From: Cupriavidus necator
GTDB taxonomy: Bacteria > Pseudomonadota > Gammaproteobacteria > Burkholderiales > Burkholderiaceae
Length of the DNA: 32,000 nt
NCBI RefSeq assembly: GCF_016127575.1
Contig: NZ_CP066018.1
Location: 3,150,001 to 3,182,000 of the forward strand
Direction: 5' to 3'
Part shown: one piece after another, positions 16,200 to 28,172 of the stretch
How the letters are laid out: every line of letters begins with the position of its first letter
Position numbering within the stretch: position 1 is the stretch's first letter
The notes under the pieces: model-generated
Databases searched by the model: none
What the model was told of the DNA's origin: nothing
Seen by the model: the letters and a program-made list of their open reading frames with translations, nothing else
Position numbers and translations under genes: made by a program

Positions 16200-16853
16200 C
16201 TATGCCTCGATGGGCAGCCCGTGAGCGCGCCACTCGGCCACGCCATCAGTCAGGTGGAAGGCGCGATAGCCCTTCTTGCGCAGGAACTCGACAGCGTCCT
16301 TGGCCATCAGGCAGAAGGGGCCGCGGCAGTACGCGACAACGGGCATGTCTTTGGGCAGCTCGGCAAGCCGCTTCCTGAGTTCGTCGAGTGGCAGGGAGCG
16401 AGCATGCGGCAAGTGGGCCGTGGCGAACTCCTCTGCTGGGCGCACATCGAGAACCAGCACTTCTCCGGCCCTGGCCTTCTTCAAGATGGCAGCACGGTCG
16501 AATCCTTCGAGGTCGTCGCCATGCCCGATGATTGACGCCAGGGCCACCTGCAATTCCACTAGCCGCTCCTCGGCCGCTGAACGAAGCGTTACCCAGAGGT
16601 CGGCCACGCTGGTGCTGGCCAGGCGGTACTGGACGTACTTCCCATCCTTGCGGGTCTCGACGAGACGAGCCTGGCGCAGCTCCTTGAGATGAGCGCTGGC
16701 GAGCTTCACGCTGATTTCTGCCTGGGCGGCCAGAACCTCGACGGTTTTCTCACCCTGGCACATAAGCTCGATAAGCTCCAGACGTTTCGGGCTGGCTACG
16801 GCTTTCCCGATGCGCGCGACCTGCTCGTACAGGTGGTTCTTTAACGTTCTCAT
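16200..16853 (-). CDS. ArsR/SmtB-family regulator fused to a rhodanese domain
   Basis: The N-terminal wHTH reads ASPKRLELIELMCQGEKTVEVLAAQAEISVKLASAHLKELRQARLVETRKDGKYVQYRL. The C-terminal rhodanese has the active-site loop YCRGPFC. Confidence 0.9.
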   Translation of the reverse strand: MRTLKNHLYEQVARIGKAVASPKRLELIELMCQGEKTVEVLAAQAEISVKLASAHLKELRQARLVETRKDGKYVQYRLASTSVADLWVTLRSAAEERLVELQVALASIIGHGDDLEGFDRAAILKKARAGEVLVLDVRPAEEFATAHLPHARSLPLDELRKRLAELPKDMPVVAYCRGPFCLMAKDAVEFLRKKGYRAFHLTDGVAEWRAHGLPIEA

Positions 16854-16960: not shown

Positions 16961-17308
16961 TCAGACCAGCACGTGACGTGTCTCTAGAAAGAAGCGCTGA
17001 ATCTCTTGTTCAATCTCCGGATCGATCATTCTGACCGGCCGGTTTCCGTTCGGGCAGGCAAGCCTTGGGGTCGTTCCAAACAAGCGACAAATCAACGGGC
17101 GCTCCGAATACACGCTGCATCCCTTGGTATCAAGGTGAGGGCAACTCAGGTTTGCCAGCGCCGTTTCGTGCTCGGCATCGCTTTTGACGGGAAGCCTCGA
17201 CATTTCCTCCGTTGAGGTTGTCACAGGACCACAACAGTCATGACATCCAGGGGTGCACTCAAATGTGGGAATTCGTGAGCGAAGAAATCTGATCTTTTGA
17301 CTATTCAT
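16961..17308 (-). CDS. YkgJ-family (UPF0153) cysteine-cluster protein
   Basis: The CxxxCxxCC motif (CTPGCHDCC) is followed by CPHLDTKGCSVYSERPLICRLFG, the typical second Cys cluster. By eye this gene has lower GC than its neighbours. Confidence 0.8.
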   Translation of the reverse strand: MNSQKIRFLRSRIPTFECTPGCHDCCGPVTTSTEEMSRLPVKSDAEHETALANLSCPHLDTKGCSVYSERPLICRLFGTTPRLACPNGNRPVRMIDPEIEQEIQRFFLETRHVLV

Positions 17309-17659: not shown

Positions 17660-18820
17660 TCATGTGCCTCCCCGCCCAGACAGATGCTGCACAAGCCAGA
17701 TCATTGCCGACACCGCTGCACCGGCCCAGAGCGTCACGATCACCAGCGCCGCAACGTGGCTGACGGGGCGGTGGGCGGATGCCGCGGCCGCCGCGCGATG
17801 CTGGCGCATTACCGCGACCGGAATCCACCGTATTGCCAGCAACAAGCCCAGCGGCACCACCACCACGTCATCCAGATAGCCGAGCACCGGAATGAAATCG
17901 GGAAACAGGTCAATGGGCGACAAGGCATAGGCGGCGACCGGCAAGGCCAGTGCTTTCGCATACCATGGCGTGCGGGGATCTTGCGCGGCCAGCCACACGG
18001 CGTGCACATCTTCCTTGACTGCGCGAGCCCAACGCCGGGAACGTGCGATCAAATGAGCCAGAAGATCCCGGCGCCACAAATGCAGACGCACATCGTCCAG
18101 CACCGGAACCGCAGCGAGGGCAAGCAACAGGGTTGCCAGCGCAAGTGTGGCGCTGAACCCGACGTGCTTGAACCCCAGGGCGCCAATGACGCCGCCGGCA
18201 AAGAACAATACGACGAGTGTGATGAGTACCTGCAGCTTATGCCGATTGGCGAGCACCGGCGGCTTGCTCGAATCGGCCCTGGACAGGTTCCAATAGAACA
18301 GCTTGCCCAGTTCGATACCGATGTCGGTGACCATGCCGGTCACGTGCGTGGTGCGGATCTCGGCATTCGACAGCTTGGTGACCATGGCATTTTGCAAGCC
18401 CATGATGAAACAGAGCACCATGACTGTTGCCGGCACGAACAACCATTCGTGGTGTTCGAGATTGCTGCCTAGCAGGCCAAAACACACCAACAACAAGGCT
18501 TCCAGCATGAGCGGCAATGCGTATTCGCTATGCAGTCGCTCGCGCCGGGCCCAGTTGATCAGTACCGCTGAGCAGGCGGCGCCCGCCAGGAACGACAGCA
18601 AGGCCCCAAGGCCGTCCAACATCAGCCAGAAACTGCCAAGCGCCAGGTTGTCGGCCATGGCGGACACAACGCCCGACATGTGCGAGGTGTACTGCTGCAC
18701 GGCCAGGAAGCCGCCTGCGTTGGTTGCTCCGGCCACAAACGCCAGGTAGCAGGCCAGTTGCCGATTGCTGCCGGGACTGCGCTCCTTCCCAGTCAGCTTG
18801 CGCAAGTACAGGATAGGCAT
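17660..18820 (-). CDS. Membrane protein fusing a DUF1275 (YoaK-like) domain to a C-terminal DUF1232 (YkvA-like) domain
   Basis: The two DUF1275 half-repeats are AGATNAGGFLAVQQYTSHMSGVVSAMADNLALG and MGLQNAMVTKLSNAEIRTTHVTGMVTDIGIELG. The C-terminal DUF1232 motif is YALSPIDLFPDFIPVLGYLDDVVVVPLG. I chose the start at 18820 (MPILYL) because the track start at 18916 would overlap the upstream gene by 56 nt. No good RBS was seen. Confidence 0.8.
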   Translation of the reverse strand: MPILYLRKLTGKERSPGSNRQLACYLAFVAGATNAGGFLAVQQYTSHMSGVVSAMADNLALGSFWLMLDGLGALLSFLAGAACSAVLINWARRERLHSEYALPLMLEALLLVCFGLLGSNLEHHEWLFVPATVMVLCFIMGLQNAMVTKLSNAEIRTTHVTGMVTDIGIELGKLFYWNLSRADSSKPPVLANRHKLQVLITLVVLFFAGGVIGALGFKHVGFSATLALATLLLALAAVPVLDDVRLHLWRRDLLAHLIARSRRWARAVKEDVHAVWLAAQDPRTPWYAKALALPVAAYALSPIDLFPDFIPVLGYLDDVVVVPLGLLLAIRWIPVAVMRQHRAAAAASAHRPVSHVAALVIVTLWAGAAVSAMIWLVQHLSGRGGT

Positions 18821-18860
18821 GGTTGCGTTGGTAAGGAGGCTTGCGCGGGGGAGGGCGGTG

Positions 18861-19691
18861 TCAATACCGGAGCTGCGGTCTTGCCAGCTTCGACCAGGCC
18901 GCACGATCCGACGCAAGGCGCTCGCCGCGTTTCAGGCGGCGAGCGGCCGCGGTCAGGCTTAGCGAATGCGCGGTTTCCAGGATGCGCGCTCGTGCAATCA
19001 GCGCGTCCAGGGAGGGCAGCTTGTGCGCCCCCTTCCAGGCAAACAGCGTGTAGTTGGAACTGTCTTCGGAAAGAGAAATCGACATCGACTGGCCGAACGC
19101 GGTGCTGACTTCCTCCAGGTAAAGCGGGATATCGGGATCGCTTTCGAGAAAATTCGCGACCAGCACGCCGGTATCGGCCAGGCGGGCATGACAGGCGGCA
19201 TAGAAGTCTGCCGTCCCCAGCTGCACCGGCATGCCATCGGCCAGAAACCCGTCCACCAGGATCACGTCCGGTCGCGCATCCTGGTTCGCAACATAGTCGG
19301 CGCCATCTGCGCAAACCACCTCAAGTCGTTCGTCGTCCGGCGGGATCTGGAATTGCTCGCGCAGGGCGATGACCGCCGGATTAATTTCAATTGCCACGAT
19401 CTTGGTGTTGGGCAGATGCCGGTAGCAGTACTTGGCAAGCGAACCGCCACCCAGGCCGATCATTGAGATCCTGGCCGGGACTGGGTGCAACAACAGGAAT
19501 CCCATCATCGTCCGGGTATAGCCCAGCACGAGCTTGTCGGGATCCTTGCGCGACATGAAGCTCTGGGTCGCGAGCGCGTCGAAATGCAGGGACAGGGCGT
19601 GCTGGGTTTCCAACACCTTGGGCGTACCGTCGTGGCTCGCCTCGGCAAGGAACTTCAGGTAGGCGTCGAACGAGGTGCGGTCGGCATGCAT
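18861..19691 (-). CDS. Spermidine-synthase-like (class I methyltransferase fold) protein
   Basis: The Gly-rich nucleotide-binding motif is ISMIGLGGGSLAKY. The acidic motifs are VAIEINPAVI and DVILVDGF. The length (276 aa) and layout fit the aminopropyltransferase-like family. Confidence 0.8.
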   Translation of the reverse strand: MHADRTSFDAYLKFLAEASHDGTPKVLETQHALSLHFDALATQSFMSRKDPDKLVLGYTRTMMGFLLLHPVPARISMIGLGGGSLAKYCYRHLPNTKIVAIEINPAVIALREQFQIPPDDERLEVVCADGADYVANQDARPDVILVDGFLADGMPVQLGTADFYAACHARLADTGVLVANFLESDPDIPLYLEEVSTAFGQSMSISLSEDSSNYTLFAWKGAHKLPSLDALIARARILETAHSLSLTAAARRLKRGERLASDRAAWSKLARPQLRY

Positions 19692-19705: not shown

Positions 19706-19990
19706 TCAAAGCGCCTTGGGAAGCGCCTCTCCCCGCAACAATGCCGCGATGGTGACGACAGCGGCGGCTTCGTCCGCTCCGTCCGCCTGGATGCGGATGT
19801 GCGTTCCCACCCGGGCGGACAGGCGCATGACCTCCATCACGCGCTTGGCGTTTGCAACCCAGGGGCCACTGGTAAGCAGGATCTCGCACTCAAATTGATT
19901 GGCCGTGAAAGCCAGCCGTGCGGAATTCCGCCCTTGAAATGCATTCCCGGCAGTTACCGCTATCGTCACTTCTACCACTGCGCCCCTCAT
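19706..19990 (-). CDS. HPr-fold protein lacking both canonical phosphorylation sites
   Basis: The product aligns without gaps to E. coli HPr (recalled from memory) across EVTI...NAFQGRNSARLA...TSGPWVANAKRV...IQADGADE. His15 is replaced by Gln, Arg17 is kept, and Ser46 is replaced by Asn. The start at 19990 (MRGAVVEV) gives the HPr-like length of 94 aa. The alternative ATG at 20047 would add 19 residues. Confidence 0.7.
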   Translation of the reverse strand: MRGAVVEVTIAVTAGNAFQGRNSARLAFTANQFECEILLTSGPWVANAKRVMEVMRLSARVGTHIRIQADGADEAAAVVTIAALLRGEALPKAL

Positions 19991-20059: not shown

Positions 20060-20124
20060 GCCGGCGCATCTTGGAGATGTATACTATTATAATTCCATTA
20101 TTATATGATGACATTGTTAGACGC
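20060..20124. promoter_or_regulatory. AT-rich divergent promoter/operator region between the HPr-like operon and RHH gene 1
   Basis: This short AT-rich patch interrupts otherwise GC-rich DNA. TATAAT lies on the plus strand at 20088-20093. TATAAT lies on the minus strand at 20086-20091 and at 20100-20105. An imperfect inverted repeat, TATTATAAT-tcc-ATTATTATA (20085-20105), matches at 8 of 9 positions. Confidence 0.5.
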
Positions 20125-20328
20125 ATGGAATCCAAGACTGCCCGCCTGACCGTATTGATCGATCCGGAGAAGAAAAAGGCCTTTGAGGCGCTCTGCGCCG
20201 CCCAGGACCAGACGCCATCCCAAGTCGTTCGCCAGATGATTCGCGACTATTTGCAGCAGTACGAGGTGGACTACGCCACCCGGCCGACGCTTGGAGCGCC
20301 AAGGTCAGTGGCGAAGGAACGCGGGTGA
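20125..20328 (+). CDS. Ribbon-helix-helix (CopG/Arc-like) DNA-binding protein, paralog 1
   Basis: The N-terminus of the 67-aa product fits the RHH pattern of a beta strand followed by two helices: MESKTARLTVLIDPEKKKAFEALCAAQDQTPSQVVRQMIRDYL. It is about 66% identical over the first 50 residues to the ORF at 27602-27877. Confidence 0.75.
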   Translation: MESKTARLTVLIDPEKKKAFEALCAAQDQTPSQVVRQMIRDYLQQYEVDYATRPTLGAPRSVAKERG

Positions 20329-20346
20329 TGCAGGAAGGGGCCAGCC

Positions 20347-20382
20347 GGTGCCCACGCTCAGGTGCACACCTCAGGTGCACAC
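20347..20382. repeat. Short tandem direct repeats in the convergent gap between RHH gene 1 and the small-subunit gene
   Basis: CTCAGGTGCACAC is perfectly duplicated in tandem (20357-20369 and 20370-20382). A degenerate third copy, ggtgcccacgctca, starts at 20347. Each unit contains the palindrome GTGCAC. Confidence 0.7.
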
Positions 20383-20404: not shown

Positions 20405-20929
20405 CTAGCGTCTTGTGGCACCGGTCTGCCGGACGGCGCTTAGTATTGCGCGCAGGATCTCTATCGGCGGCGGTGGACAGCCCGGCACCGTTATGTCTAC
20501 CGGGATGACATTGGCGACGCGGCCGCAGCTCGCATAGCTCTCCCCGAAGATCCCGCCAGTACAGCCACAGTCGCCTATCGCCACCACCAGTTTCGGCTCC
20601 GGGGTTGCCGCATAGGTGCGCAGCAGGGCCTCTTCCATATGACGCGAAACGGGTCCCGTCACCAGGAGCATGTCGGCATGGCGCGGGCTTGCGACGAACT
20701 TGATGCCCAGGCCTTCGATGTTGTAGTAAGGATTGCCGAGTGCGTGGATTTCCAGTTCGCAGCCATTGCAGGAGCCTGCGTCGACCTGCCGGATCGTCAG
20801 CGCCTGCCCGAGAATGTCGAGCAGCTCCCGGTGGATGCGCTGGATGGAGGCGGCCTCGTCCGCCGCGCCGCGCGGAGCAGGCTCAGTAACGATGCCGGTA
20901 TGTGCGATCTGCCTGAGGATTTTCCACAT
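20405..20929 (-). CDS. NuoB/HycG/HyfI-like small subunit with [4Fe-4S] ligands retained
   Basis: The cluster-binding cysteines are present: DAGSCNGCE, IGDCGCTGG and VPGCPPPP. The ATG at 20927-20929 overlaps the large-subunit stop by 1 nt (TGATG), implying translational coupling. Confidence 0.9.
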   Translation of the reverse strand: MWKILRQIAHTGIVTEPAPRGAADEAASIQRIHRELLDILGQALTIRQVDAGSCNGCELEIHALGNPYYNIEGLGIKFVASPRHADMLLVTGPVSRHMEEALLRTYAATPEPKLVVAIGDCGCTGGIFGESYASCGRVANVIPVDITVPGCPPPPIEILRAILSAVRQTGATRR

Positions 20930-22479
20930 CAGAGATCGTGCCCCGAATAGCTGAGGTTGAAGGATTTGTTGATCAGCGGAAAGTCCGGCACGATGTTCCC
21001 GATGATGGCATGCTCCAGCACCGGCCAGTTCTGCCACGACGGGTCGTGGCAATGGCAGCGCAGAATGCGGCTGTCATCGGCAAGGTCGAGCGCGACCAGG
21101 ACTTCGCCACGCCAGCCCTCCACCCATCCGACCCCGATGGCGGCGCCGGCGGGCGCTTGCGGAACGATTCGCGTGGCACCCTCCGGCAGGCCTGCACAGA
21201 TGGCACGGATCAGTCGCAGCGACTCCAGCACCTCATCGAAGCGCACCGCCACCCGGGCGGCGACATCGCCGCCGCGGTGCGTGGCCATCTTCACGGCGAC
21301 GCTATCGTAGGGCCGCCAGGCATGGTCGCAGCGCAGGTCCGCGGCGCAACCGCTGGCACGTCCGGCCAGGCCGGTAAGCCCAAGCCGGGCGGCAAGCTGC
21401 GGCGTGACGCAGCCTGCTCCAAGAAATCGGTCCTGCAGGCCCGCATGTTCGTCGTACACCGCACGCAGCACGCGTACTTCCCGCTCGATGTGACCGCACT
21501 GCTGTTCCAGGCGCTCAGCCATGGCTGGTGCCAGGTCTTGCGCAACGCCGCCCGGTACCACGGCGTCCATCATCAGCCGGTGACCGAAAGCCTCTGCGGA
21601 CAACCGCTGCCAGTCTTCGCGCAGGCGCGAGAATTGCGCCAGGCCGAAGGCCAGCCCCGCGTCATTGCCCAGCGCCCCCAGGTCACCCAGGTGATTGGCC
21701 ACCCGCTCACGCTCGAGCATCAGGGCGCGCAGCCAGTCCGCCCGCGGTGGAGGCGCGCAGCGCCAGGCGGACTCCAGCGCCATGCAATAGGCCCAGGCAT
21801 AGGCCACGGTGGAATCGCCCGAGACCCGGCCGGCCAACCGGTAGCCCTCGGGCGGCGCCAGTTCGGTGAAACGCCGCTCGATGCCCTTGTGGGTGTAGCC
21901 CAGGTGTTCCTCCAGCCGCAGCACCTTCTCGCCGACCACCGAAAAGCGGAAGTGGCCGGGTTCGATGATGCCGGCATGCACCGGCCCGACCGCGATCTCG
22001 TGCACGCCGTCGCCCTCCACGCGCACGAAAGGATAGTTGGCAGGCAATATGCCGCCGGTGGCCGCACCCGCCGGCGCGCCGCCTTGCAGCGGCCGCGCCC
22101 CTGCCGGCCACAGGCCGTGGTCCAGCCAGGGCCGGCCATCGCGGCTGTCCTGCACGGGGATACCCACCAGGTCGGTCATGGCACGTTGCATCCGGCCCGC
22201 GCATGGGAATACGCCGGCCAGGTCCGGCACGGCGGGCGCGACGCCATCCAGTCGCAGTTCGAGCCACATCAGCCCCCGCGCCGCGGCGTATGTGACGCAT
22301 GCCGTCAACGTGCCGCCGATGGCACTCCGATCAACGCCCCACAGCGCAACGAGGCGCCCGCCAGCGTCCGCCACCGCGCGGGCCGTGACCGACCAGCCGT
22401 CTGGATCGACCCGGCCATGCCAGACTGGCAGCGGCGCGGGCAACCGCTCCAGGTTGAGGCCGGGATCGGACAGAGTCAT
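20929..22479 (-). CDS. HycE/HyfG-like (NuoC-NuoD fusion) large-subunit homolog lacking all four [NiFe]-binding cysteines
   Basis: The conserved core reads GPVHAGIIEPGHFRF...EEHLGYTHKGIE. Where group 4 hydrogenases have R-x-C-G-x-C-x-x-x-H, this protein reads RVSGDSTVAY (codons at 21811-21822 read TCG GGC GAT TCC = SGDS). Where they have D-P-C-x-x-C-x-x-R at the C-terminus, it reads NLSYSGHDL. The start at 22479 (MTLSDPG) has a GGGAG RBS and lies 4 nt after the hyfF-like stop. Confidence 0.9.
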   Translation of the reverse strand: MTLSDPGLNLERLPAPLPVWHGRVDPDGWSVTARAVADAGGRLVALWGVDRSAIGGTLTACVTYAAARGLMWLELRLDGVAPAVPDLAGVFPCAGRMQRAMTDLVGIPVQDSRDGRPWLDHGLWPAGARPLQGGAPAGAATGGILPANYPFVRVEGDGVHEIAVGPVHAGIIEPGHFRFSVVGEKVLRLEEHLGYTHKGIERRFTELAPPEGYRLAGRVSGDSTVAYAWAYCMALESAWRCAPPPRADWLRALMLERERVANHLGDLGALGNDAGLAFGLAQFSRLREDWQRLSAEAFGHRLMMDAVVPGGVAQDLAPAMAERLEQQCGHIEREVRVLRAVYDEHAGLQDRFLGAGCVTPQLAARLGLTGLAGRASGCAADLRCDHAWRPYDSVAVKMATHRGGDVAARVAVRFDEVLESLRLIRAICAGLPEGATRIVPQAPAGAAIGVGWVEGWRGEVLVALDLADDSRILRCHCHDPSWQNWPVLEHAIIGNIVPDFPLINKSFNLSYSGHDL

Positions 22480-22483
22480 CGGT

Positions 22484-23938
22484 TCAGCTCCCAAGCATTG
22501 CGGCTGCCTGCCGGTACCAGGTGTCGAGATAGGGCGGAACATAGAGGCCCAGCATCAGCCCCAGGGCGAGGTGCGTGAACACCGGGACCAGCGCTGGCGG
22601 ATGCGCCAGCGGCATGAGCGTGGTGTCGCCGAAGACCATCGGCTGCACCCGGCTGAACACCGCGGCGAACGCCAGCCCAAGTGCCAACAGCAGGAAGGGC
22701 GTGGCCCACGGCTGTTCGCGCATGGCGGTGGTGACGATCAGGAACTCGCTGGCAAAGACCCCGAACGGGGGCATGCCCAGGATGGCGAGCACTCCTACCA
22801 TCAGGCCCCAGCCGACCGTGGGACTGACACGGATCAACCCGCGAATATCGTCCATGACTTGCGTGCCCGCCTTCTGCGCGGCGTGGCCGACGGCGAAGAA
22901 GATCGCTGACTTGACCAGCGAATGCACCGTCATGTGCAGCAGGCCGGCATAGCTGGCGATCGGCCCGCCCATGCCGAAGGCGAAGGTCATCATGCCCATG
23001 TGCTCGATGGACGAATACGCGAACATGCGCTTGATGTCGCGTTGCCGGATCAGGAAGAAGACAGCCGCGACCACCGATAGCAGGCCGAACCCCATCATCA
23101 GGCGGCCGGTCAGATGGTTGCCAAGCGCCGCATCGGTCAGCACCTTGCAGCGCAGCACGGCATAGAGCGCCACATTGAGCAGCAGGCCGGAGAGCACGGC
23201 GGATACCGGGGTTGGCCCCTCGGCGTGGGCATCGGGCAGCCAGTTGTGCAGTGGGACCAGGCCGACCTTGGTGCCATAGCCGATAAACAGGAAGGCAAAC
23301 GCCAGCGTGATGATGTTGGGATCGAGCTGGCGCTTGACCGCGTCCAGGTTGGTCCACAGCAGGGCCCCGCCCTCCGGGCCGATGACCTGCTCGGCGGCCA
23401 TGTACAGCAGCACCGTACCGAACAGCGCCTGGGCAATCCCCACCCCGCACAGGATGAAGTACTTCCAGGCGGCCTCGAGGCTCGCGGCGGTGCGGTAGAC
23501 GCTGACCAGCAGCACCGTGGTCAGCGTGGCGGCCTCCATCGCAACCCACACGATACCCATATTGTTGGTCGTCAGCGCCAGCAGCATGGTGAAGGTGAAG
23601 AGCTGGTACATGCTGTGGTACAGACGCAGCCGCGGCGGCGTCATCTTGCCGTGGTCGTGCTCCACCCGCATGTACGGCCGCGAAAAAATCGAGGTGGTCA
23701 GCCCCACGAACGCGGTCAGCGCAACCAGGAAGACGTTCAGGGCATCGATGTAGAACTCCCGGTCCCATGCCAGCATGGGACCATCGGCGACGATTTGCGC
23801 CGTCAGCACGCAGGCGGCGAGGAATGTGCCCAGGCTGAAGGCGACATTGATGTCGCGGGCGCGCTCGCGATGTCCCGTCAGCGCCAGCACCAGCCCGCCG
23901 GCAAGCGGAAATCCAAGCAGAAAGGCCAGCGCGGTCAA
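22484..23938 (-). CDS. hyfF: HyfF-like (NuoN/Mrp antiporter-like) membrane subunit
   Basis: The 484-aa polytopic protein carries antiporter-like motifs (GYGTKVGLVPLHNWLPDAHAEGPTPVSA, MFAYSSIEHMG, HSLVKSAIFF). The TTG start at 23938 is supported by a strong AAGGAGGA RBS 6 nt upstream. Confidence 0.9.
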   Translation of the reverse strand: MTALAFLLGFPLAGGLVLALTGHRERARDINVAFSLGTFLAACVLTAQIVADGPMLAWDREFYIDALNVFLVALTAFVGLTTSIFSRPYMRVEHDHGKMTPPRLRLYHSMYQLFTFTMLLALTTNNMGIVWVAMEAATLTTVLLVSVYRTAASLEAAWKYFILCGVGIAQALFGTVLLYMAAEQVIGPEGGALLWTNLDAVKRQLDPNIITLAFAFLFIGYGTKVGLVPLHNWLPDAHAEGPTPVSAVLSGLLLNVALYAVLRCKVLTDAALGNHLTGRLMMGFGLLSVVAAVFFLIRQRDIKRMFAYSSIEHMGMMTFAFGMGGPIASYAGLLHMTVHSLVKSAIFFAVGHAAQKAGTQVMDDIRGLIRVSPTVGWGLMVGVLAILGMPPFGVFASEFLIVTTAMREQPWATPFLLLALGLAFAAVFSRVQPMVFGDTTLMPLAHPPALVPVFTHLALGLMLGLYVPPYLDTWYRQAAAMLGS

Positions 23939-23939
23939 C

Positions 23940-24599
23940 TCAATCCTCCTTCAGCTTCTCAAGGTGACGGATGTCCAGGCTGTCGAACTGCTCGCGGATC
24001 TGGAACATGAACACGCCCAGGATCAGCACGCCGATCAGCACATCCAGCGCGATGCCCAGCTCGACCACCATCGGCATGCCATAGGTCGCGGCGGTGGCCG
24101 CAAAGAAGAGGCCGTTCTCCATCGCCAGGAAGCCGATGACCTGCGGCACCGCCTTGGAGCGCGTGATCATCATCAGGAAGGACAGCAGCACGCAGGCCAG
24201 CGCAATGCCCAGCGTGCCGCTGGCGAGCTTCAGCGACAGCCGCGAGATCGGCATGGTGAGGTTGAAGGCGAAGATCACGACCAGGATGCCGATCAGCATC
24301 GTGGTGGGAATGTTGATCAGCGTCTCGACGTCCCTGCGGATCCGGAGACGATCGATCACGCGGTGCAGCAGATAAGGGATGAGCAACGCCTTGAGGATCG
24401 CGGTCAGGCCGGCCGACAGGTAGAGGTGCGGCTGGCCCGTCACGTAGCCGACGATAGCCGTGGCCAAGGCCAGGGTCGCACCCTGCAGCGTGAACAAGTT
24501 GATCAGCGACAGGATCCGTCGTTGCGAGATCATGGCGAAGGCGAGGATCAACAGCACCGCGCCGAGCAGGTTGACAAACTGGGTGAGGAGTACGGTCAC
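23940..24599 (-). CDS. hyfE: HyfE-like (NuoK-related) membrane subunit
   Basis: The 219-aa hydrophobic protein sits in the hyfE position between the hyfC-like and hyfF-like genes. It has a GTG start with a GGAGG RBS. Confidence 0.85.
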   Translation of the reverse strand: MTVLLTQFVNLLGAVLLILAFAMISQRRILSLINLFTLQGATLALATAIVGYVTGQPHLYLSAGLTAILKALLIPYLLHRVIDRLRIRRDVETLINIPTTMLIGILVVIFAFNLTMPISRLSLKLASGTLGIALACVLLSFLMMITRSKAVPQVIGFLAMENGLFFAATAATYGMPMVVELGIALDVLIGVLILGVFMFQIREQFDSLDIRHLEKLKED

Positions 24600-24618
24600 T
24601 GGACTGGCCTCCGGGGGT

Positions 24619-25566
24619 TCAGCGTGCCAGCAGCAAGTGGACCAGCATGCCGATCACCGCCAGCAGAAAGGCGGTGGCCAGGAACTCCGGCACGCGGAAG
24701 ATGCGCATCTTGGCGCTCGCCGTCTCCAGCGCCGCCAGCAGGATCCCGCCCACCATGAGCTTGAACAGCAGCGCGGGCAGCGCCAGCAGCATGGCCAGGG
24801 GAGCTTGCGCTTCTGCAACGCCCCATGGGAAAAACAGCGCCAGGCCGATGCAGGAATAGGCGAACAGCTTCAGGCTTGCCGCCCACTCAAGGAGGGCCAG
24901 ATGCCGCCCCGAATATTCCAGGATCAGCGCCTCGTGGATCATCGTCAGCTCGAGGTGGGTGGCGGGATTGTCGACCGGTATGCGGGCGTTCTCGGCCAGG
25001 GAGACCATGGTGAACGCCACGCCGGCAAACGCCAGGCCGGGATAGATGGCCAGGTCCCGGTGAGCAATCGTCTCGACGATGGTGGTGAGCGAGGTCGACT
25101 TGGAGACCAGCGAGGCGGAGAACAGCACCATCAGCAGCGCCGGTTCCGCCAGGAAGCCGATCAGCATCTCGCGCCGCGCTCCCAGGGTCCCGAAAGCGGT
25201 GCCGACGTCCATCGCCGCCAGCGAGATGAAAACCCGCGCCAGCGCGAACAGGCCGACCAGGGCAATCGCGTCGGCGGCCGGTGCCAGTGGCAGATCGGTG
25301 GACACGGTCGGGACGATCGAGCAAGCCAGCGCCATGCAGCCGAACACCACGTAAGGCGTGGCGCGGAACAGCGGCGAGGCATTGTCCGCGACCACCGAGT
25401 CCTTGTTGAACAGCTTGTGCAGCATGCGATAGGGCTGCCAGAGGCTGGGTGCCGACTTGTTCTGCAGCCAGGCCCGCCACTGATTGACCCAGCCGGTCAG
25501 CAGCGGCGCCAGCGCGATCGAAATCACGATCTCAAGCAGCTGTGACAGGATCCCGGTCAGGTTCAT
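24619..25566 (-). CDS. hyfC: HyfC/HycD-like (NuoH-related) membrane subunit
   Basis: The 315-aa product reads APLLTGWVNQWRAWLQNKSAPSLWQPYRMLHKLFNK and ENARIPVDNPATHLELTMIHEALILEYSG, both typical of HycD/NuoH-type subunits. Confidence 0.9.
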   Translation of the reverse strand: MNLTGILSQLLEIVISIALAPLLTGWVNQWRAWLQNKSAPSLWQPYRMLHKLFNKDSVVADNASPLFRATPYVVFGCMALACSIVPTVSTDLPLAPAADAIALVGLFALARVFISLAAMDVGTAFGTLGARREMLIGFLAEPALLMVLFSASLVSKSTSLTTIVETIAHRDLAIYPGLAFAGVAFTMVSLAENARIPVDNPATHLELTMIHEALILEYSGRHLALLEWAASLKLFAYSCIGLALFFPWGVAEAQAPLAMLLALPALLFKLMVGGILLAALETASAKMRIFRVPEFLATAFLLAVIGMLVHLLLAR

Positions 25567-25576
25567 GCGGCCCTCT

Positions 25577-27598
25577 TCACATCACGGCCAGCAGCGTGGC
25601 GGCCAGGGTCAGGAAGCTGTACAGCAGGTAAACCGAGATGCGTCCCTGTTGCATCAGGCCGATCAGCCGGGCCAGGTACGACGCCAGATCGATCACGGGG
25701 ACATACATCCAGCGCCAAAAATGATCCGCCACTGTGACCCGGTAGTGCGGCTGCTCATCGAATGGCGTCGGCAGGTCGCGGCGCATCAGGAAAAACGGCT
25801 CAAAGATCTGGCGGATCGGCTGCCCGAACCCCTCGGCAGTGTCCTGCATGCGCGCGGTGCCCCAGGGAAAGCCGCAAGCCCAGGGCGGGCTGCGGCGAAG
25901 CCGACCGTGGTACAAGCGGCGCACCAGCAGGTAGGCGAGCGCAACGCTGGCCAGGATGCCTGACAGGAAAATAACCGGCCCGTAGCTGGCCTGGGCCAGG
26001 CCATTCGGCGCCAGCAGCCAGCTGCTGGCCGCGGTCCGGGCGCCGAGTCCGCTCGCCACCAGTTGCTGCGTCACCGGATCGATCAACTGGACGAATTGCG
26101 TCGGCAGCAGGCCAAGCGCGATGCAGCCCAGCGCCAGCCACAGCATGCCCGCGCGCTCCCAACGGCCGGCGTCGTGCGCGTTGACCAGTCTGGGCTCACG
26201 GGGCTGGCCGAGGAAGATCACGCCGAAGAACTTGACCATGGTGTAACCGGCCAGTGCCGCCACCAGCGCAATCAGCGCGGCGACCACCGGGATCAGCATG
26301 GTCAGTATCGGTTCCGGCAGACCAGGCGTGAACAGGAAGCTCTGCAGCAGCAGCCACTCCGAGACGAAACCGCCAAGCGGCGGCAGCCCGGCGCTGGCCA
26401 GCACGCCCAGCAGTGTCAGCCAGCCCACCCATGGCATGTAGCGAATCAGTCCGCCTAGCTTGCCCAGGCTTCTCTCGGTGGTGGCATGCAGCACGCTACC
26501 GGTTCCCAGAAAAAGCAGGCTTTTGAAGAATGCATGGCTGGCGACATGGTAGAGCGCGGCCGTCAGGGCGAGGGCGGCCATCGGCTTCATGCCGTAGGCC
26601 GAGAACAGCAGTGTCAGCCCCATGGCAACGAAGAGCAGGCCCATGTTCTCGATCGACGAATAAGCCAGCAGCCGCTTCATGTCGGTCTGAACAGCTGCGA
26701 AGACCACGCCGAACAGCGCGGTGGCCAATCCAATCGCCAGCAGCAATCCGCCCCACCACCACAGGCGCATCGGCAGCAGGTCGAAAGATACGCGCAACAG
26801 GCCGTAGATGGCAGTGTTGAGCATGACGCCGCTCATCATTGCCGATACCGGTGACGGCGCGGCCGGATGCGCCTCCGGCAGCCAGATGTGCAGAGGCAGG
26901 ATGCCGGCCTTGGCGCCGAATCCGAACAACGCGAGCAGGAAACCGGCGGAGGCCCAGAACGGCGTCAGCGCCTGGGCGCGCATGTTGGCAAACGTATAGT
27001 CGCCGGTATTGGCCTGCAGCACGCCAAAGCACAGCAGAATCGCAATCGCCCCGATGCGCGCCATCGTGATGTAGAGATAGCCGGCGGCGCGCACTTCGGC
27101 GATGCGGTGGTTGGCGGTCACCAGGAAGAATGAAGCCAGCGCCATGGTTTCCCACATCACCATGAACGAGTAGGCGTCGTCGGCCAGGATCACCCCGGCC
27201 ATGCTGGCAAGAAACAGGTGGTATTCAAGACAAAGCAGGCCTGGCGGCGTACCTTCGCCCGTGCGGAAGTAGCCAGCCGCAAACGTGGAGATGCCAGCCG
27301 CCGCTCCCCCCATTACCATCAGGAAGTAGGCGGACAGGCTGTCGAGCCGGACGTGGAACGGCAGCGATGGCAGGCCAATGGGCAGCACGGCTGCCTCGGG
27401 CGTGCCGGACACAGCGTGCAGCGCCAGGCTGAACAGCGCAAGCCCTAGCAGTCCCCCGATGGGGAACAGCACGTGGGATACCAGGGCAAACCGATGCAGC
27501 GCCAGGACCCCTGCCACGCCGATAAGCAGCCAGGCCCCAACCACAACAAGCATCCAGTCGAGATGGAGCCATTGCGTGAGAGGGGGCACGGTGCTCAT
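25577..27598 (-). CDS. hyfB: HyfB-like (NuoL/Mrp antiporter-like) membrane subunit
   Basis: The 673-aa polytopic protein reads WETMALASFFLV, GFGAKAGILPLHIWLPEAHPAAPSPVSA, LLAYSSIENMG and HAFFKSLLFLGTG. The C-terminal extension is typical of HyfB. Its ATG lies 3 nt after the RHH gene stop. Confidence 0.92.
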   Translation of the reverse strand: MSTVPPLTQWLHLDWMLVVVGAWLLIGVAGVLALHRFALVSHVLFPIGGLLGLALFSLALHAVSGTPEAAVLPIGLPSLPFHVRLDSLSAYFLMVMGGAAAGISTFAAGYFRTGEGTPPGLLCLEYHLFLASMAGVILADDAYSFMVMWETMALASFFLVTANHRIAEVRAAGYLYITMARIGAIAILLCFGVLQANTGDYTFANMRAQALTPFWASAGFLLALFGFGAKAGILPLHIWLPEAHPAAPSPVSAMMSGVMLNTAIYGLLRVSFDLLPMRLWWWGGLLLAIGLATALFGVVFAAVQTDMKRLLAYSSIENMGLLFVAMGLTLLFSAYGMKPMAALALTAALYHVASHAFFKSLLFLGTGSVLHATTERSLGKLGGLIRYMPWVGWLTLLGVLASAGLPPLGGFVSEWLLLQSFLFTPGLPEPILTMLIPVVAALIALVAALAGYTMVKFFGVIFLGQPREPRLVNAHDAGRWERAGMLWLALGCIALGLLPTQFVQLIDPVTQQLVASGLGARTAASSWLLAPNGLAQASYGPVIFLSGILASVALAYLLVRRLYHGRLRRSPPWACGFPWGTARMQDTAEGFGQPIRQIFEPFFLMRRDLPTPFDEQPHYRVTVADHFWRWMYVPVIDLASYLARLIGLMQQGRISVYLLYSFLTLAATLLAVM

Positions 27599-27601
27599 GG
27601 A

Positions 27602-27877
27602 TCAGGCTCCACGACGGGTCGTACGGCGCTTGGCAGGAGGTGCCGCGTCGCGCCGCGACGACGCGCCGACCGGTGGCCTCTCTTTGCCCTTGGCTTCCGC
27701 CTTGTCCGTGCCTACGCCGCTGGGCACGTACTGGACGCCATGCTGGGCCAGGTAGTCGCGGATAAGCCGCCGTATCACCTGCGAGGCAGTCAGATCCTGT
27801 TGTGCGCAGAGGCGCTCGAAGGCGGCCTTCTTGTTGGGATCGATGAGCAACGTAAGCCGAGCGGTCTTTTGCTCCAT
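27602..27877 (-). CDS. Ribbon-helix-helix DNA-binding protein, paralog 2, first gene of the hyf-like operon, with a basic Pro/Ala-rich tail
   Basis: The RHH core is MEQKTARLTLLIDPNKKAAFERLCAQQDLTASQVIRRLIRDYL. It is followed by ...KAEAKGKERPPVGASSRRDAAPPAKRRTTRRGA. The stop at 27602-27604 is followed after 3 nt by the hyfB-like ATG, and the hyfB RBS (ggag) lies inside the tail coding sequence. Confidence 0.8.
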   Translation of the reverse strand: MEQKTARLTLLIDPNKKAAFERLCAQQDLTASQVIRRLIRDYLAQHGVQYVPSGVGTDKAEAKGKERPPVGASSRRDAAPPAKRRTTRRGA

Positions 27878-27916
27878 GGGATCCTCAAGATGGCAATACG
27901 ATGATTACATGAATCA

Positions 27917-27930
27917 CATCATAGATGATG
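27917..27930. promoter_or_regulatory. Inverted repeat CATCAT-ag-ATGATG upstream of RHH paralog 2 (candidate operator)
   Basis: Read directly in the AT-richer patch 40-53 nt upstream of the start at 27877. A TATGATG element also occurs upstream of RHH paralog 1 (20103-20110 region). Confidence 0.35.
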
Positions 27931-28172
27931 GCCATGCGAATCAAAAGGCCTGGACGCTGCCATTCCTTTACTCGCTGCAACCAGGGCAAATACACTGGAC
28001 GGCGTCGCACATTCGTCGCTGGCGTTTCCTGCTGTCAGCCTAGTGCATGCGGCGCTGCAGCATCCCGCTGTCGCCGGTGCGCAATTCTCCCAATGCGGTC
28101 AGCGCCATCGAGTTTCTCGTTCCGCGTGTGCTAGGCTGAAGGCGAAATCCTGCCGCCCACGCGGAGACACCA

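Follow-up and report, generated by a model that had tools for sequence, protein, structure and literature searches.

A window of 32,000 nucleotides from Cupriavidus necator, the whole stretch of DNA analysed here, contains a seven-gene minus-strand operon (27877 to 20405) of the Hyq/Ehr type, with the layout R-B-C-E-F-G-I, whose six structural genes determine a minimal complex-I-like membrane complex, of hydrogenase descent, with a large subunit that lacks the Ni-Fe ligands. The operon is of an already known kind, the hyqRBCEFGI 'endo-hydrogenase' of Azorhizobium and other rhizobia (Ng 2009, PMC2650096; 2010, PLoS One, PMC2930871; Sprecher 2012, PMC3357923), and its product is best explained, with moderate probability, as a reversible, energy-coupled oxidoreductase. 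The same cluster had been reported in C. necator H16 (H16_A2196-A2201) and in C. metallidurans CH34, and the cysteine loss had already been published in 2012-2013 for Hyq and Ehr.

Layout and relationships of the operon

The six tightly packed HyfB-, HyfC-, HyfE-, HyfF-, HycE/NuoCD- and NuoB-like genes described in an earlier note on this DNA are confirmed by profile matches and coordinates (Table 1; HyfB scored 906 bits with NF005086 against a cutoff of 667, and HyfF 918 bits with NF005045 against 543). So is their spacing, given as gaps of 1-19 nt and measured as 10, 19, 1 and 4 nt, with one junction (GAT CTC TGATG TGG) at which stop and start codons share 1 nt. What the earlier note left out was the RHH_9 regulator gene, whose stop codon precedes the hyfB ATG by 3 nt. 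The start taken for HyfG gives the length of its homologues, and that of a longer 537-aa ORF was not used.

Table 1. Features of the operon and its surroundings (positions within the window)
Feature	Position	Strand	Basis
Second RHH_9 paralogue, convergent with the operon end	20125..20328	+	PF19839, 5e-21
HyfI/HyqI, NuoB-like small subunit, one [4Fe-4S] site, no ferredoxin-like domain, 174 aa	20405..20929	-	PF01058, 9e-31
HyfG/HyqG, fused NuoC-NuoD / HycE-like large subunit without Ni-Fe cysteines, 516 aa	20929..22479	-	PF00329 and PF00346
HyfF/HyqF, NuoM/N-type antiporter-like subunit, 484 aa	22484..23938	-	NF005045 hydrogenase 4 subunit F
HyfE/HyqE, small membrane subunit, 219 aa	23940..24599	-	NF008556 hydrogenase 4 membrane subunit, 4.6e-23, under the curated cutoff
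HyfC/HyqC, NuoH/HycD-like subunit, 315 aa	24619..25566	-	PF00146, 2.5e-31
HyfB/HyqB, NuoL/MrpA-type antiporter-like subunit, 673 aa	25577..27598	-	NF005086 hydrogenase 4 subunit B and PF00361
Ribbon-helix-helix (RHH_9/CopG-like) protein, first operon gene, hyqR position	27602..27877	-	PF19839 RHH_9, 4.8e-23
Upstream control region (putative) with palindrome CATCATCTATGATG at 27917-27930	27878..27960	-	

The pRL11 operon of Rhizobium johnstonii matches that of C. necator in all six structural genes and in their order, with 42-63% identity per subunit (48% over the full length for HyfG and HyqG). The likeness to alpha-proteobacterial Hyq extends to the seven-gene order with its six structural subunits, to the fused NuoC::NuoD large subunit (c. 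504-516 aa, without CxxC motifs and ending ...SYSGHDL), and to a NuoB-like protein of c. 175 aa that agrees in the placing of its four cluster cysteines and is unaccompanied by a ferredoxin-like subunit. The differences lie in the R slot, in the upstream region and in three cysteines of HyqG, each taken up below. In the 2013 work on Ehr, as cited in PMC6349859, PMC10284858 and PMC6728331, that name denotes a group-4-like subunit set without Ni-Fe motifs, reported to be phylogenetically close to group 4f hydrogenases, and the operon fits the definition as these papers relay it, in keeping with the Ehr-type assignment made earlier. Ehr is a loose umbrella, two distant cysteine-less members having a NuoB-like subunit with a fused 2x[4Fe-4S] module, and one of these two also an ArsR-type regulator upstream; the C. 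necator operon belongs to the ferredoxin-less Hyq subclade. The accompanying statement that the function of such complexes remains uncharacterised overlooked A. caulinodans hyqRBCEFGI, deletion of which changes both uptake and evolution of H2 in vivo, independently of hup/hyp.

Among better-known systems, E. coli Hyf (Hyd-4) has the same relative gene order, hyfB-C-E-F-G-I, and E. coli Hyc (Hyd-3, 7Z0S) provides the best sequence or fold matches for HyfB (HycC), HyfC (HycD) and HyfG (HycE), HycG being second to MbhJ as a match for HyfI. Unlike both, the C. necator complex has neither the Ni-Fe cysteines nor a C-terminal extension, and HycF/HyfH (NuoI-like), HyfA, HyfD, formate dehydrogenase (FdhF), endopeptidase (HycI) and Hyp genes were not found in the window, in agreement with the earlier reading: the larger ORFs, scanned over most of the window, gave no Pfam match to hyp, hycI, fdh or NuoI-like proteins, and no nif genes were present among the window ORFs scanned. 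Complex I (Nuo/Nqo) shares the homologous NuoB, NuoC, NuoD, NuoH and NuoL/M/N-like core, the absence of a Ni-Fe site, and an N2-type cluster beside a pocket at the membrane interface. It differs in possessing NuoEFG, NuoI and NuoA, which the six-subunit C. necator complex does without, and in its quinone ligands, since Nqo4 His38 and Tyr87 align with Ile172 and Gly221 of HyfG. The conserved GPVHAGIIEPGHFRF stretch of HyfG is hydrogenase-like.

The remodelled head and the membrane arm

How far has the catalytic site departed from that of a hydrogenase? When HyfG is aligned with E. coli HycE (phmmer, 7z0s_E, E = 1.5e-49), RVCGICGFAH falls opposite RVSGDSTVAY and DPCYSC opposite NLSYSG, bearing out the earlier claim that the four Ni-Fe cysteines are replaced by Ser, Ser, Ser and Gly (S219, S222, S510 and G513). 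HyfG ends three residues past NLSYSG, and so has no C-terminal extension for endopeptidase processing. The motifs RVSGD[ST] and NLSY[SA]G.D[LR] are kept across the family, and no cysteine is conserved throughout it; those conserved in alpha-proteobacterial HyqG (258/259, 491 and 497) are Gly, Ile and Leu in C. necator. HyfG nevertheless still folds like the large subunit of a group 4 hydrogenase and has kept most of its framework residues: its AlphaFold2 model (pLDDT 92.4) has HycE (7z0s_E) as best fold match, with a TM score of 0.92 (0.88 with NuoCD), and G165, P166, H168, E173, H176, R178, E236, E256, R259, D381, R383, R409, D499 and D515 are nearly invariant in cysteine-less members, which have also acquired a new conserved residue, Asp222. 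By its sequence the complex is not a canonical group 4 [NiFe] hydrogenase.

The small subunit keeps its cluster cysteines, as had been noted: the cluster ligands of MbhJ (1.5e-35) and HycG (9e-35) fall opposite HyfI C54, C57, C121 and C151, which correspond to 55, 58, 122 and 152 of Rhizobium HyqI, to which HyfI is 63% identical, making it the subunit most conserved between the alpha and beta lineages. HyfI thus has the cysteine ligands of one N2-type [4Fe-4S] cluster. The 2x[4Fe-4S] ferredoxin-like module is absent from all three Hyq-type loci examined (the C. necator window, Rhizobium L088 and P0126/L090), so the 'missing connecting subunit' of the earlier note is no gap peculiar to this window. 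The nearest cysteine-containing relative examined does carry the module; it is encoded by a separate ferredoxin-like gene in one cysteine-containing relative and fused to the NuoB-like subunit in another, as in the two distant cysteine-less relatives mentioned above.

HyfC, which links head and membrane arm, is closest to HycD (7z0s_D, 1.9e-44) and shares several acidic residues with it where the two align. HyfE has the same position in all loci that cover it. HyfB, for which HycC (7z0s_C, 1.4e-58) is the best match of solved structure, and HyfF have MrpA and MrpD as homologues. The expectation that these antiporter-like subunits keep their Lys/Glu helices holds for TM5 Glu, TM7 Lys (present in HyfB, whereas E. 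coli HycC has Leu there), TM11 His/Lys and TM12 Glu, but fails at TM8, where Lys is replaced by Asn in both. In HyfB this is so in C. necator, many family members having Lys, while in HyfF it extends across the family and to cysteine-containing relatives. The TM8 lysine is needed for activity in NuoM.

Selection and possible function

The family is widespread in Betaproteobacteria. In the species-genome collection at least 586 stretches code for a relative, 80 fetched loci share the gene order, and both order and motifs are retained in hundreds of species from two proteobacterial classes. Purifying selection acts on all the operon genes (dN/dS 0.04-0.24 in comparisons in which all genes aligned), confirming that the complex is maintained. 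Within Betaproteobacteria HyfC is the most conserved subunit (mean identity 84.5%, dN/dS c. 0.05-0.1), HyfF averages 84% identity, and HyfG is the least constrained (69.5%, dN/dS c. 0.2), although its NuoD-like part shows dN/dS of 0.12-0.15.

In the oxidoreductase that we favour, electrons would move between the single HyfI cluster and a substrate held in the remodelled pocket where HyfG, HyfI and HyfC meet. The membrane quinone pool is the likely partner on one side, and the substrate on the cytoplasmic side is converted at some site other than a canonical NiFe(CN)2CO centre. A charge change at the pocket might then be relayed through HyfC and HyfE to HyfB and HyfF, which would move H+ (or Na+) across the membrane. 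Subunit identities, the replacement of the HycE ligands, the fold matches to HycE and NuoCD, the near-invariant framework residues and Asp222, the cluster cysteines, the likeness of HyfC to HycD, the antiporter Glu and Lys residues, selection, the conserved gene order with its many relatives, and orthology with Hyq all support such a role, and the Hyq papers describe a complex of the respiratory membrane, with a quinone partner inferred and membrane-respiration phenotypes (PMC2650096, PMC2930871, PMC3357923). Counted against it are the non-conserved complex I quinone ligands, the TM8 Asn residues, the weak constraint on the 'catalytic' HyfG within Betaproteobacteria, the absence of genes for an electron donor or an input module from the operon and its neighbourhood in all the lineages examined, and the proteomes of Acidithiobacillus ferrooxidans grown on H2, in which none of the subunits was detected.

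Might the complex be a true, if non-canonical, hydrogenase? Hyq of A. caulinodans was claimed to be a bidirectional, cytoplasm-facing H2:quinone oxidoreductase that needs neither the four cysteines nor Hyp. Delta-hyqRI cultures evolved c. 10-15 times more H2 under diazotrophy, nodules of a hup hyq double mutant gave 27 umol H2 per g per h as against c. 0.3 for either single mutant, c. 80% of microaerobic H2 evolution was hyq-dependent and persisted in a nifK mutant, and mutants without the whole hup/hyp operon still recycled H2 (PMC2650096, PMC2930871, PMC3357923). The C. necator operon is orthologous and keeps the framework, including Glu173 in the IEPGHFR stretch. The earlier verdict that it 'cannot be a hydrogenase' therefore stands for the canonical NiFe site but is contradicted by the only available genetics, obtained on orthologues in which deletion alters H2 uptake and evolution, and must be read as a deduction from sequence. 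We still regard a hydrogenase as rather unlikely here, given the loss of all four ligands, the want of any family-wide HyfG cysteine or of the three in HyqG, and the in vivo, not cell-free, nature of the Hyq phenotypes. HydDB, moreover, classed the A. ferrooxidans homologue, which was not expressed on H2, as a non-hydrogenase, and the authors of the CH34 genome judged a lithotrophic role very unlikely. The operon strand of the upstream region, which differs in this from that of Hyq with its NifA/sigma-54-type promoter, gave no match to a sigma-54 promoter (TGGCAC-N5-TTGC) at up to two mismatches, and the window ORFs scanned included no nif or hyp genes. Curing of the hydrogenase megaplasmid leaves C. 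necator strains unable to oxidise H2, although H16 has the cluster on chromosome 1. Cupriavidus is not known as a genus of diazotrophs, so the recycling of nitrogenase-derived H2 cannot be the role of this operon.

It is more doubtful still that the complex is a non-redox, Mrp-like cation/proton antiporter driven by the proton-motive force, in which the hydrogenase head would be either a structural plug or a sensor, of redox state or of a metabolite, that gates transport. The loss of both catalytic ligands and ferredoxin-like input, the stronger constraint on membrane subunits than on HyfG within Betaproteobacteria, the lack of a redox partner conserved nearby, and the homology to MrpA and MrpD would suit such a device. 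Against it, HyfI has kept its four cluster cysteines and its similarity across classes, selection acts on the GPVHAGIIEPGHFRF stretch, the new pocket Asp and the NuoD-like part of HyfG, and neither HyfB nor HyfF has the TM8 Lys; known Mrp antiporters, besides, function without NuoB, NuoD or NuoH homologues.

That the operon is a functionless, decaying hyf remnant, as earlier genome papers supposed from its seeming incompleteness beside E. coli hyf, is ruled out by its intact, tightly packed reading frames and by the selection and conservation described above.

RHH genes and the upstream region

An RHH homologue adjoins hyfB in 23 of the 40 loci with enough flanking sequence, and the RHH_9 gene is itself constrained (dN/dS 0.08-0.23). 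In Rhizobium the same slot is filled by an unrelated Xre-type HTH protein, with no significant similarity to RHH_9. The c. 70 nt 5' of the RHH start are almost identical across Cupriavidus and Ralstonia loci (L001, L003), unlike the genes of the same loci, with their synonymous divergence of 0.15-0.4. The convergent RHH_9 paralogue occurs at the same place in Cupriavidus and Ralstonia loci.

Composition and affiliation of the operon

The six tightly packed minus-strand genes of Hyf type that the earlier note had described between 20405 and 27598 were recovered with both Pfam and NCBIfam models, and the short junctions reported there proved to be gaps of 10, 19, 1 and 4 nt followed, at the last junction (CTC TGATG TGG), by a 1-nt overlap. 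What had been overlooked was a seventh gene, encoding a CopG-like protein of the RHH_9 family ahead of hyfB, and the identity of the operon. An RHH homologue adjoins hyfB in 23 of the 40 homologous loci with enough flank. The lengths of homologues place the start of hyfG at 22479 rather than at the upstream ATG of a 537-aa ORF. The nearest DNA is a 1.19-Mb Cupriavidus necator plasmid record (98.3% identity across 7.5 kb). Base composition is uneven: G+C reaches 69% across hyfG and the start of hyfF (21001-23000), against 64-65% in the remaining membrane genes and about 60% in the flanking DNA, and the elevated stretch coincides with the fastest-evolving gene.

Features of the hyf-type operon and its surroundings (window positions; frequencies refer to homologous loci with enough flank)
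Feature	Position	Strand	Remarks
ArsR/SmtB-type HTH + rhodanese fusion	16200-16853	-	3.5 kb from operon
CxxCxxCC (PF03692) putative metal-binding protein	16961-17308	-	6/40 loci
DUF1275/YoaK + DUF1232 membrane protein	17660-18916	-	10/40 loci
Spermidine-synthase-like methyltransferase	18861-19691	-	15/40 loci
HPr-family protein	19706-19990	-	
Second RHH_9 paralogue	20125-20328	+	MESKTARLTVLIDPEKKKAFEALCAAQD...
Perfect 13-nt tandem duplication, CTCAGGTGCACAC	20357-20382		two copies, just past hyfI stop codon
HyfI, NuoB-like	20405-20929	-	174 aa; Oxidored_q6 as sole domain
HyfG, NuoC-NuoD fusion	20929-22479	-	516 aa (Pfam/NCBIfam)
HyfF, second antiporter-like	22484-23938	-	484 aa; NF005045, 918 bits, above cutoff
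HyfE-like membrane protein	23940-24599	-	219 aa (Pfam/NCBIfam)
HyfC, NuoH/HyfC-like	24619-25566	-	315 aa (Pfam/NCBIfam)
HyfB, antiporter-like	25577-27598	-	673 aa; NF005086, 906 bits, above cutoff (Pfam/NCBIfam)
RHH_9 (CopG-like)	27602-27877	-	stop 3 nt ahead of hyfB start
Conserved upstream stretch	27878-27960	-	about 70 nt almost identical in Cupriavidus/Ralstonia loci
Palindrome CATCATCTATGATG	27917-27930		candidate operator

The operon is of an already described type (Hyq/Ehr) and is not a discovery. The CH34 genome paper had already described this set of six genes, as hyfBCEFGI, both in C. necator H16 (H16_A2196-A2201) and in C. metallidurans CH34 (Rmet_4666-4671), regarding it as an incomplete hyf operon for which a lithotrophic role was improbable; a literature search for expression or fitness data on these two sets of loci returned a mention in that paper only. 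A small regulator gene followed by B-C-E-F-G-I is the arrangement shared by the window, hyqRBCEFGI of Azorhizobium caulinodans and pRL11 of Rhizobium johnstonii 3841, although the regulator family differs between window and Rhizobium. Identity to the Rhizobium proteins is 45% for B, 50% for C, 42% for E, 55% for F, 48% (full length) for G and 63% for I. Rhizobium HyqG (504 aa, ending ...FNCSYSGHDL) is, like the window HyfG, a fused NuoC::NuoD lacking both CxxC motifs, and its cysteine positions and length, with the cysteine positions of HyqI, nearly coincide with the numbering for A. caulinodans (Sprecher 2012, PMC3357923). Marreiros 2013 coined the term Ehr for such complexes, as cited in PMC6349859, PMC10284858 and PMC6728331; going by the definition relayed in these citing papers (subunits homologous to those of group 4, large subunit without Ni-Fe motifs), the window operon belongs here, and the earlier assignment to Ehr was right.

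With group 4 [NiFe] hydrogenases (Hyc/Hyf/Ech/Mbh) the window shares a NuoB-like subunit with one [4Fe-4S] cluster, but it lacks the four Ni-Fe cysteines (L1 RxCGxC, L2 DPCxxC) and the NuoI-like 2x[4Fe-4S] subunit (HycF/HyfH/EchF). From complex I it differs in having six subunits only, without NuoEFG or NuoI.

A head without nickel-iron ligands

Of all solved structures, the one that HyfG matches best by sequence is HycE, the large subunit of E. coli Hyd-3 (7z0s_E, E = 1.5e-49). In this alignment RVCGICGFAH of HycE pairs with RVSGDSTVAY and DPCYSC with NLSYSG, so that Ser219, Ser222, Ser510 and Gly513 stand at the four ligand positions, as the earlier note had claimed. The motifs RVSGD[ST] and KSFNLSY[SA]GHDL likewise occur in almost every one of the 120 closest protein clusters (72-98% identity). 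In a wider survey of the 150 best representatives from a library of 1.84 billion proteins, 80 were long enough to align at the four positions; the ligand cysteines were all missing in 66, all present in 11, reduced to the first in 3 and to three in 1. HyfG ends three residues past the L2 position with no C-terminal extension for an endopeptidase to cleave, which does not discriminate, because the cysteine-containing relatives sampled terminate at the same point.

The fold is predicted to be that of a hydrogenase large subunit. An AlphaFold2 model built with 73 family sequences (pLDDT 92.4, pTM 0.94) has HycE as its top structural match (TM 0.92), with E. coli NuoCD second (TM 0.88). Practically all hydrogenase framework residues are retained by the cysteine-less members (the GPVHAGIIEPGHFRF stretch, E236, E256, R259, D381, R383, R409, D499 and D515), and a conserved Asp222, the D of SGD, is an addition in them. 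No cysteine column reaches 90% conservation in the alignment of the 73 sequences. The three conserved cysteines of alpha-proteobacterial HyqG (259, 491 and 497 in Rhizobium) align with Gly, Ile503 and Leu509, and so are not general alternative ligands; judged by alignment, the residues once proposed for that role are absent from the beta-proteobacterial member analysed here.

The small subunit keeps its cluster cysteines, as had been noted earlier. Cys54, Cys57, Cys121 and Cys151 of HyfI align with the ligands of MbhJ and HycG and correspond to cysteines 55, 58, 122 and 152 of Rhizobium HyqI. Across the Hyq clade a single Fe-S cluster is retained, together with an acidic pocket that is conserved. 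No Fer4 match was found in the operon or among the window ORFs scanned, and the same ORFs gave no match to hyp, hycI, fdh or NuoI-like families, again in keeping with the earlier account. Relatives differ here: a four-cysteine relative (locus L083, 40% identity) has the same gene order with a separate 108-aa 2x[4Fe-4S] gene between G and I, and the module is fused to the NuoB-like subunit in another four-cysteine relative and in two distant cysteine-less ones. The NuoB-like subunit is bare in the window, in Rhizobium and in P0126, which belongs to the same clade; the ligands and the electron wire have therefore disappeared jointly in the Hyq members examined. P0126 itself retains the first ligand cysteine only.

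Of the membrane subunits, HyfC has HycD as its nearest match (1.9e-44) and shares several acidic residues with it within the aligned stretches. The statement that the antiporter-like subunits keep their charged helices stood for TM5 Glu, TM7 Lys, TM11 His/Lys and TM12 Glu in both HyfB and HyfF, and failed for the TM8 lysine, which is Asn in both. In HyfF this Asn (at the position of NuoM Lys265) is found family-wide, cysteine-containing relatives included; in HyfB it is confined to a Cupriavidus/Variovorax subgroup, many family members having Lys. It is accordingly a lineage trait, and we rejected it as a sign of decay.

Selection, distribution and possible function

Scanning one genome per species turned up at least 586 stretches that code for a relative. 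All 80 loci retrieved share the order B-C-E-F-G-I; among their sources are Cupriavidus, Ralstonia, Polaromonas, Variovorax, Rhodoferax, Ramlibacter, Methylibium, Accumulibacter, Sulfuritalea and Aromatoleum. Over the comparisons in which all genes aligned, the four membrane subunits had pairwise dN/dS values of 0.04-0.19, HyfI of 0.08-0.15 and HyfG of 0.16-0.24 (0.12-0.15 in its NuoD-like and 0.26-0.45 in its NuoC-like part). Low dN/dS, constant gene order and the motifs kept bear out the earlier view of a maintained complex rather than pseudogenes. What is maintained has six subunits and resembles complex I; its one N2-type cluster site, its hydrogenase-type head devoid of Ni-Fe ligands, its intact NuoH-like connector and its pair of antiporter-like subunits are all under selection. 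Relative constraint is a weak argument for a vestigial head, and we set it aside: HyfG is the least conserved subunit within Betaproteobacteria, but in the comparison of window with Rhizobium HyfI is the most conserved and HyfG average. A neighbour-joining tree groups the cysteine-containing sequences in one clade and alpha- and beta-proteobacterial Hyq in another; having no bootstrap support and an uncertain root, it speaks neither to the direction nor to the number of cysteine losses.

The breadth of the distribution in Betaproteobacteria does not fit an exclusive link with nitrogen fixation, and C. necator is not known to be a diazotroph. The operon had been described in 2010 as generally absent from non-diazotrophs (PMC2930871). 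Hyq/Ehr complexes are common in aerobic soil and water bacteria, nitrifiers, acidophiles and Mycobacterium tuberculosis, whose Rv0081-0087 genes are likewise described as Ehr homologues.

As a general picture, which implies no specific cytoplasmic substrate, we lean slightly towards a reversible, energy-coupled oxidoreductase. Electrons would move between the [4Fe-4S] cluster and a substrate held where HyfG, HyfI and HyfC meet, in the remodelled pocket; a quinone would be the likely partner on the membrane side, and the change in charge would drive, or be driven by, ion movement via HyfC/HyfE and HyfB/HyfF. Three points count against this picture: the quinone ligands of complex I are replaced (His38 and Tyr87 of Nqo4, the NuoD-like subunit of complex I, align with Ile172 and Gly221), the TM8 lysine is replaced in both antiporter-like subunits, and no donor gene lies nearby. 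All-against-all clustering of the ORFs of the 80 loci revealed no conserved redox partner (electron donor, formate dehydrogenase or ferredoxin); it yielded only syntenic housekeeping genes (ScpA, MetG) and the RHH, speE-like, DUF1275, CxxCxxCC and HPr-like genes.

That the complex is a genuine, non-canonical H2:quinone oxidoreductase seems unlikely, although the genetics of one laboratory indicate that the cysteine-free member of A. caulinodans both consumes and makes H2 (PMC2650096; PMC2930871; PMC3357923). There, deletion of hyqRI slowed diazotrophic growth and raised H2 release some 10-15-fold; nodules evolved H2 only in the hup hyq double deletion (27 umol per g per h, compared with about 0.3); at <1 uM O2 the output of H2 was very high, and about 80% of it was hyq-dependent and persisted in a nifK mutant; and mutants lacking the whole hup/hyp operon still recycled H2. 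The phenotype is published for A. caulinodans only. Against it stand sequence logic and the A. ferrooxidans homologue: the catalytic subunit of hyfBCEFGI in that organism is classed as a non-hydrogenase by HydDB, and its subunits were undetected during growth on H2. Sprecher 2012 (PMC3357923) noted the lack of both CxxC motifs in HyqG and called a Ni-Fe site 'uncertain, if not unlikely'. The claim that the complex cannot be a hydrogenase is therefore correct for the canonical Ni-Fe site; taken more widely, it is contested by the only experiments on orthologues. We consider it very doubtful that H2 is activated at a cysteine-free site without the Hyp-dependent NiFe(CN)2CO cofactor, and give as little credence to the form this might take, a centre built of Asp, Glu and His residues (e.g. 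Glu173, His176, Asp222, His514, Asp515) beside the N2-type cluster on a complex-I-like scaffold. If real, such a site would add a further, unrecognised kind of hydrogen-converting centre, distributed widely among aerobic Proteobacteria and independent of nitrogen fixation.

That the complex is an antiporter, either redox-inert or redox-gated, is improbable: NuoB-, NuoCD- and NuoH-like genes are under selection in the window, whereas the Mrp antiporter set (MrpA-G) has none of these, and all Mrp subunit models scored below their cutoffs against the window proteins. A functionless remnant is scarcely credible given the low dN/dS.

The energy-coupled oxidoreductase and the H2 reading can now be set against each other in narrower terms, since the Hyq members examined have neither Ni-Fe ligands nor a ferredoxin-like wire and the Hyq/Ehr family extends well beyond diazotrophs. 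These complexes are evolutionarily intermediate between hydrogenases and complex I, and settling the dispute over H2 would reveal either a new mode of H2 activation or a new respiratory coupling site. The window operon is a good instance of this experimentally testable question, and C. necator, a genetically tractable organism with well-defined hydrogenase-free strains, is suited to testing the role of Hyq/Ehr.

Regulatory genes and neighbourhood

The regulator slot is filled by non-homologous proteins according to lineage: RHH in the window, an Xre-type HTH in Rhizobium and an ArsR-type HTH in a distant member. Membership of a nif regulon (NifA box and sigma-54, with co-selection for N2 fixation), as in the described Hyq operons, finds no support in the window, where no TGGCAC-N5-TTGC site, even with up to two mismatches allowed, precedes the RHH gene on the coding strand, and no nif gene occurs among the ORFs scanned. 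Across the window, counts of the sigma-54 pattern were those expected by chance. A scan for sigma-70 promoters and terminators gave no more matches than shuffled sequence did, and none of use ahead of the RHH gene. The stretch immediately upstream of that gene is almost identical between the window and the Cupriavidus/Ralstonia loci despite divergence at synonymous sites, and contains the palindrome.

The second RHH_9 paralogue is convergent with the operon end and divergent from the HPr-like gene, a position kept in the Cupriavidus and Ralstonia loci; an 87-aa minus-strand ORF at 20117-20380 is merely its antisense. The HPr-family protein no longer has either phosphorylation site: aligned with Bacillus HPr, it shows Gln for His15 and Arg for Ser46. 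Burkholderia stagnalis (L082) likewise has an HPr-family gene close to its cluster. The speE-like, DUF1275 and CxxCxxCC neighbours recur with the cluster in several beta-proteobacterial genera (also loci L082, L004, L007, L075 and L079). The ArsR/SmtB-rhodanese fusion resembles sulfur- or sulfite-sensing repressors, with BigR and TsoR models below their cutoffs.

Other neighbours were seen in single loci. A beta-carbonic anhydrase gene (PF00484; L083, 7247-7837) directly follows the B-C-E-F-G-ferredoxin-I cluster of the four-cysteine relative P0170, and a succinate dehydrogenase/fumarate reductase gene set (L090, 11336-14663) is convergent with the P0126 cluster immediately past hyqI, which may be coincidence. 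Ralstonia pickettii RAL3 carries the cluster twice on one replicon, chromosome 3, each copy complete and accompanied by the same accessory genes (L003 and L058; HyfG 89% and 90% identical to the window protein in the locus scan). On plasmid 3 of Variovorax sp. PBL-E5 (L081, 16563-19159), the end of a second complex-I-like cluster, with genes for a 4Fe-4S binding protein, a NuoC-annotated large subunit and a proton-conducting membrane subunit, lies about 3.4 kb from the Hyq-type cluster, the two being separated by a universal stress protein gene.
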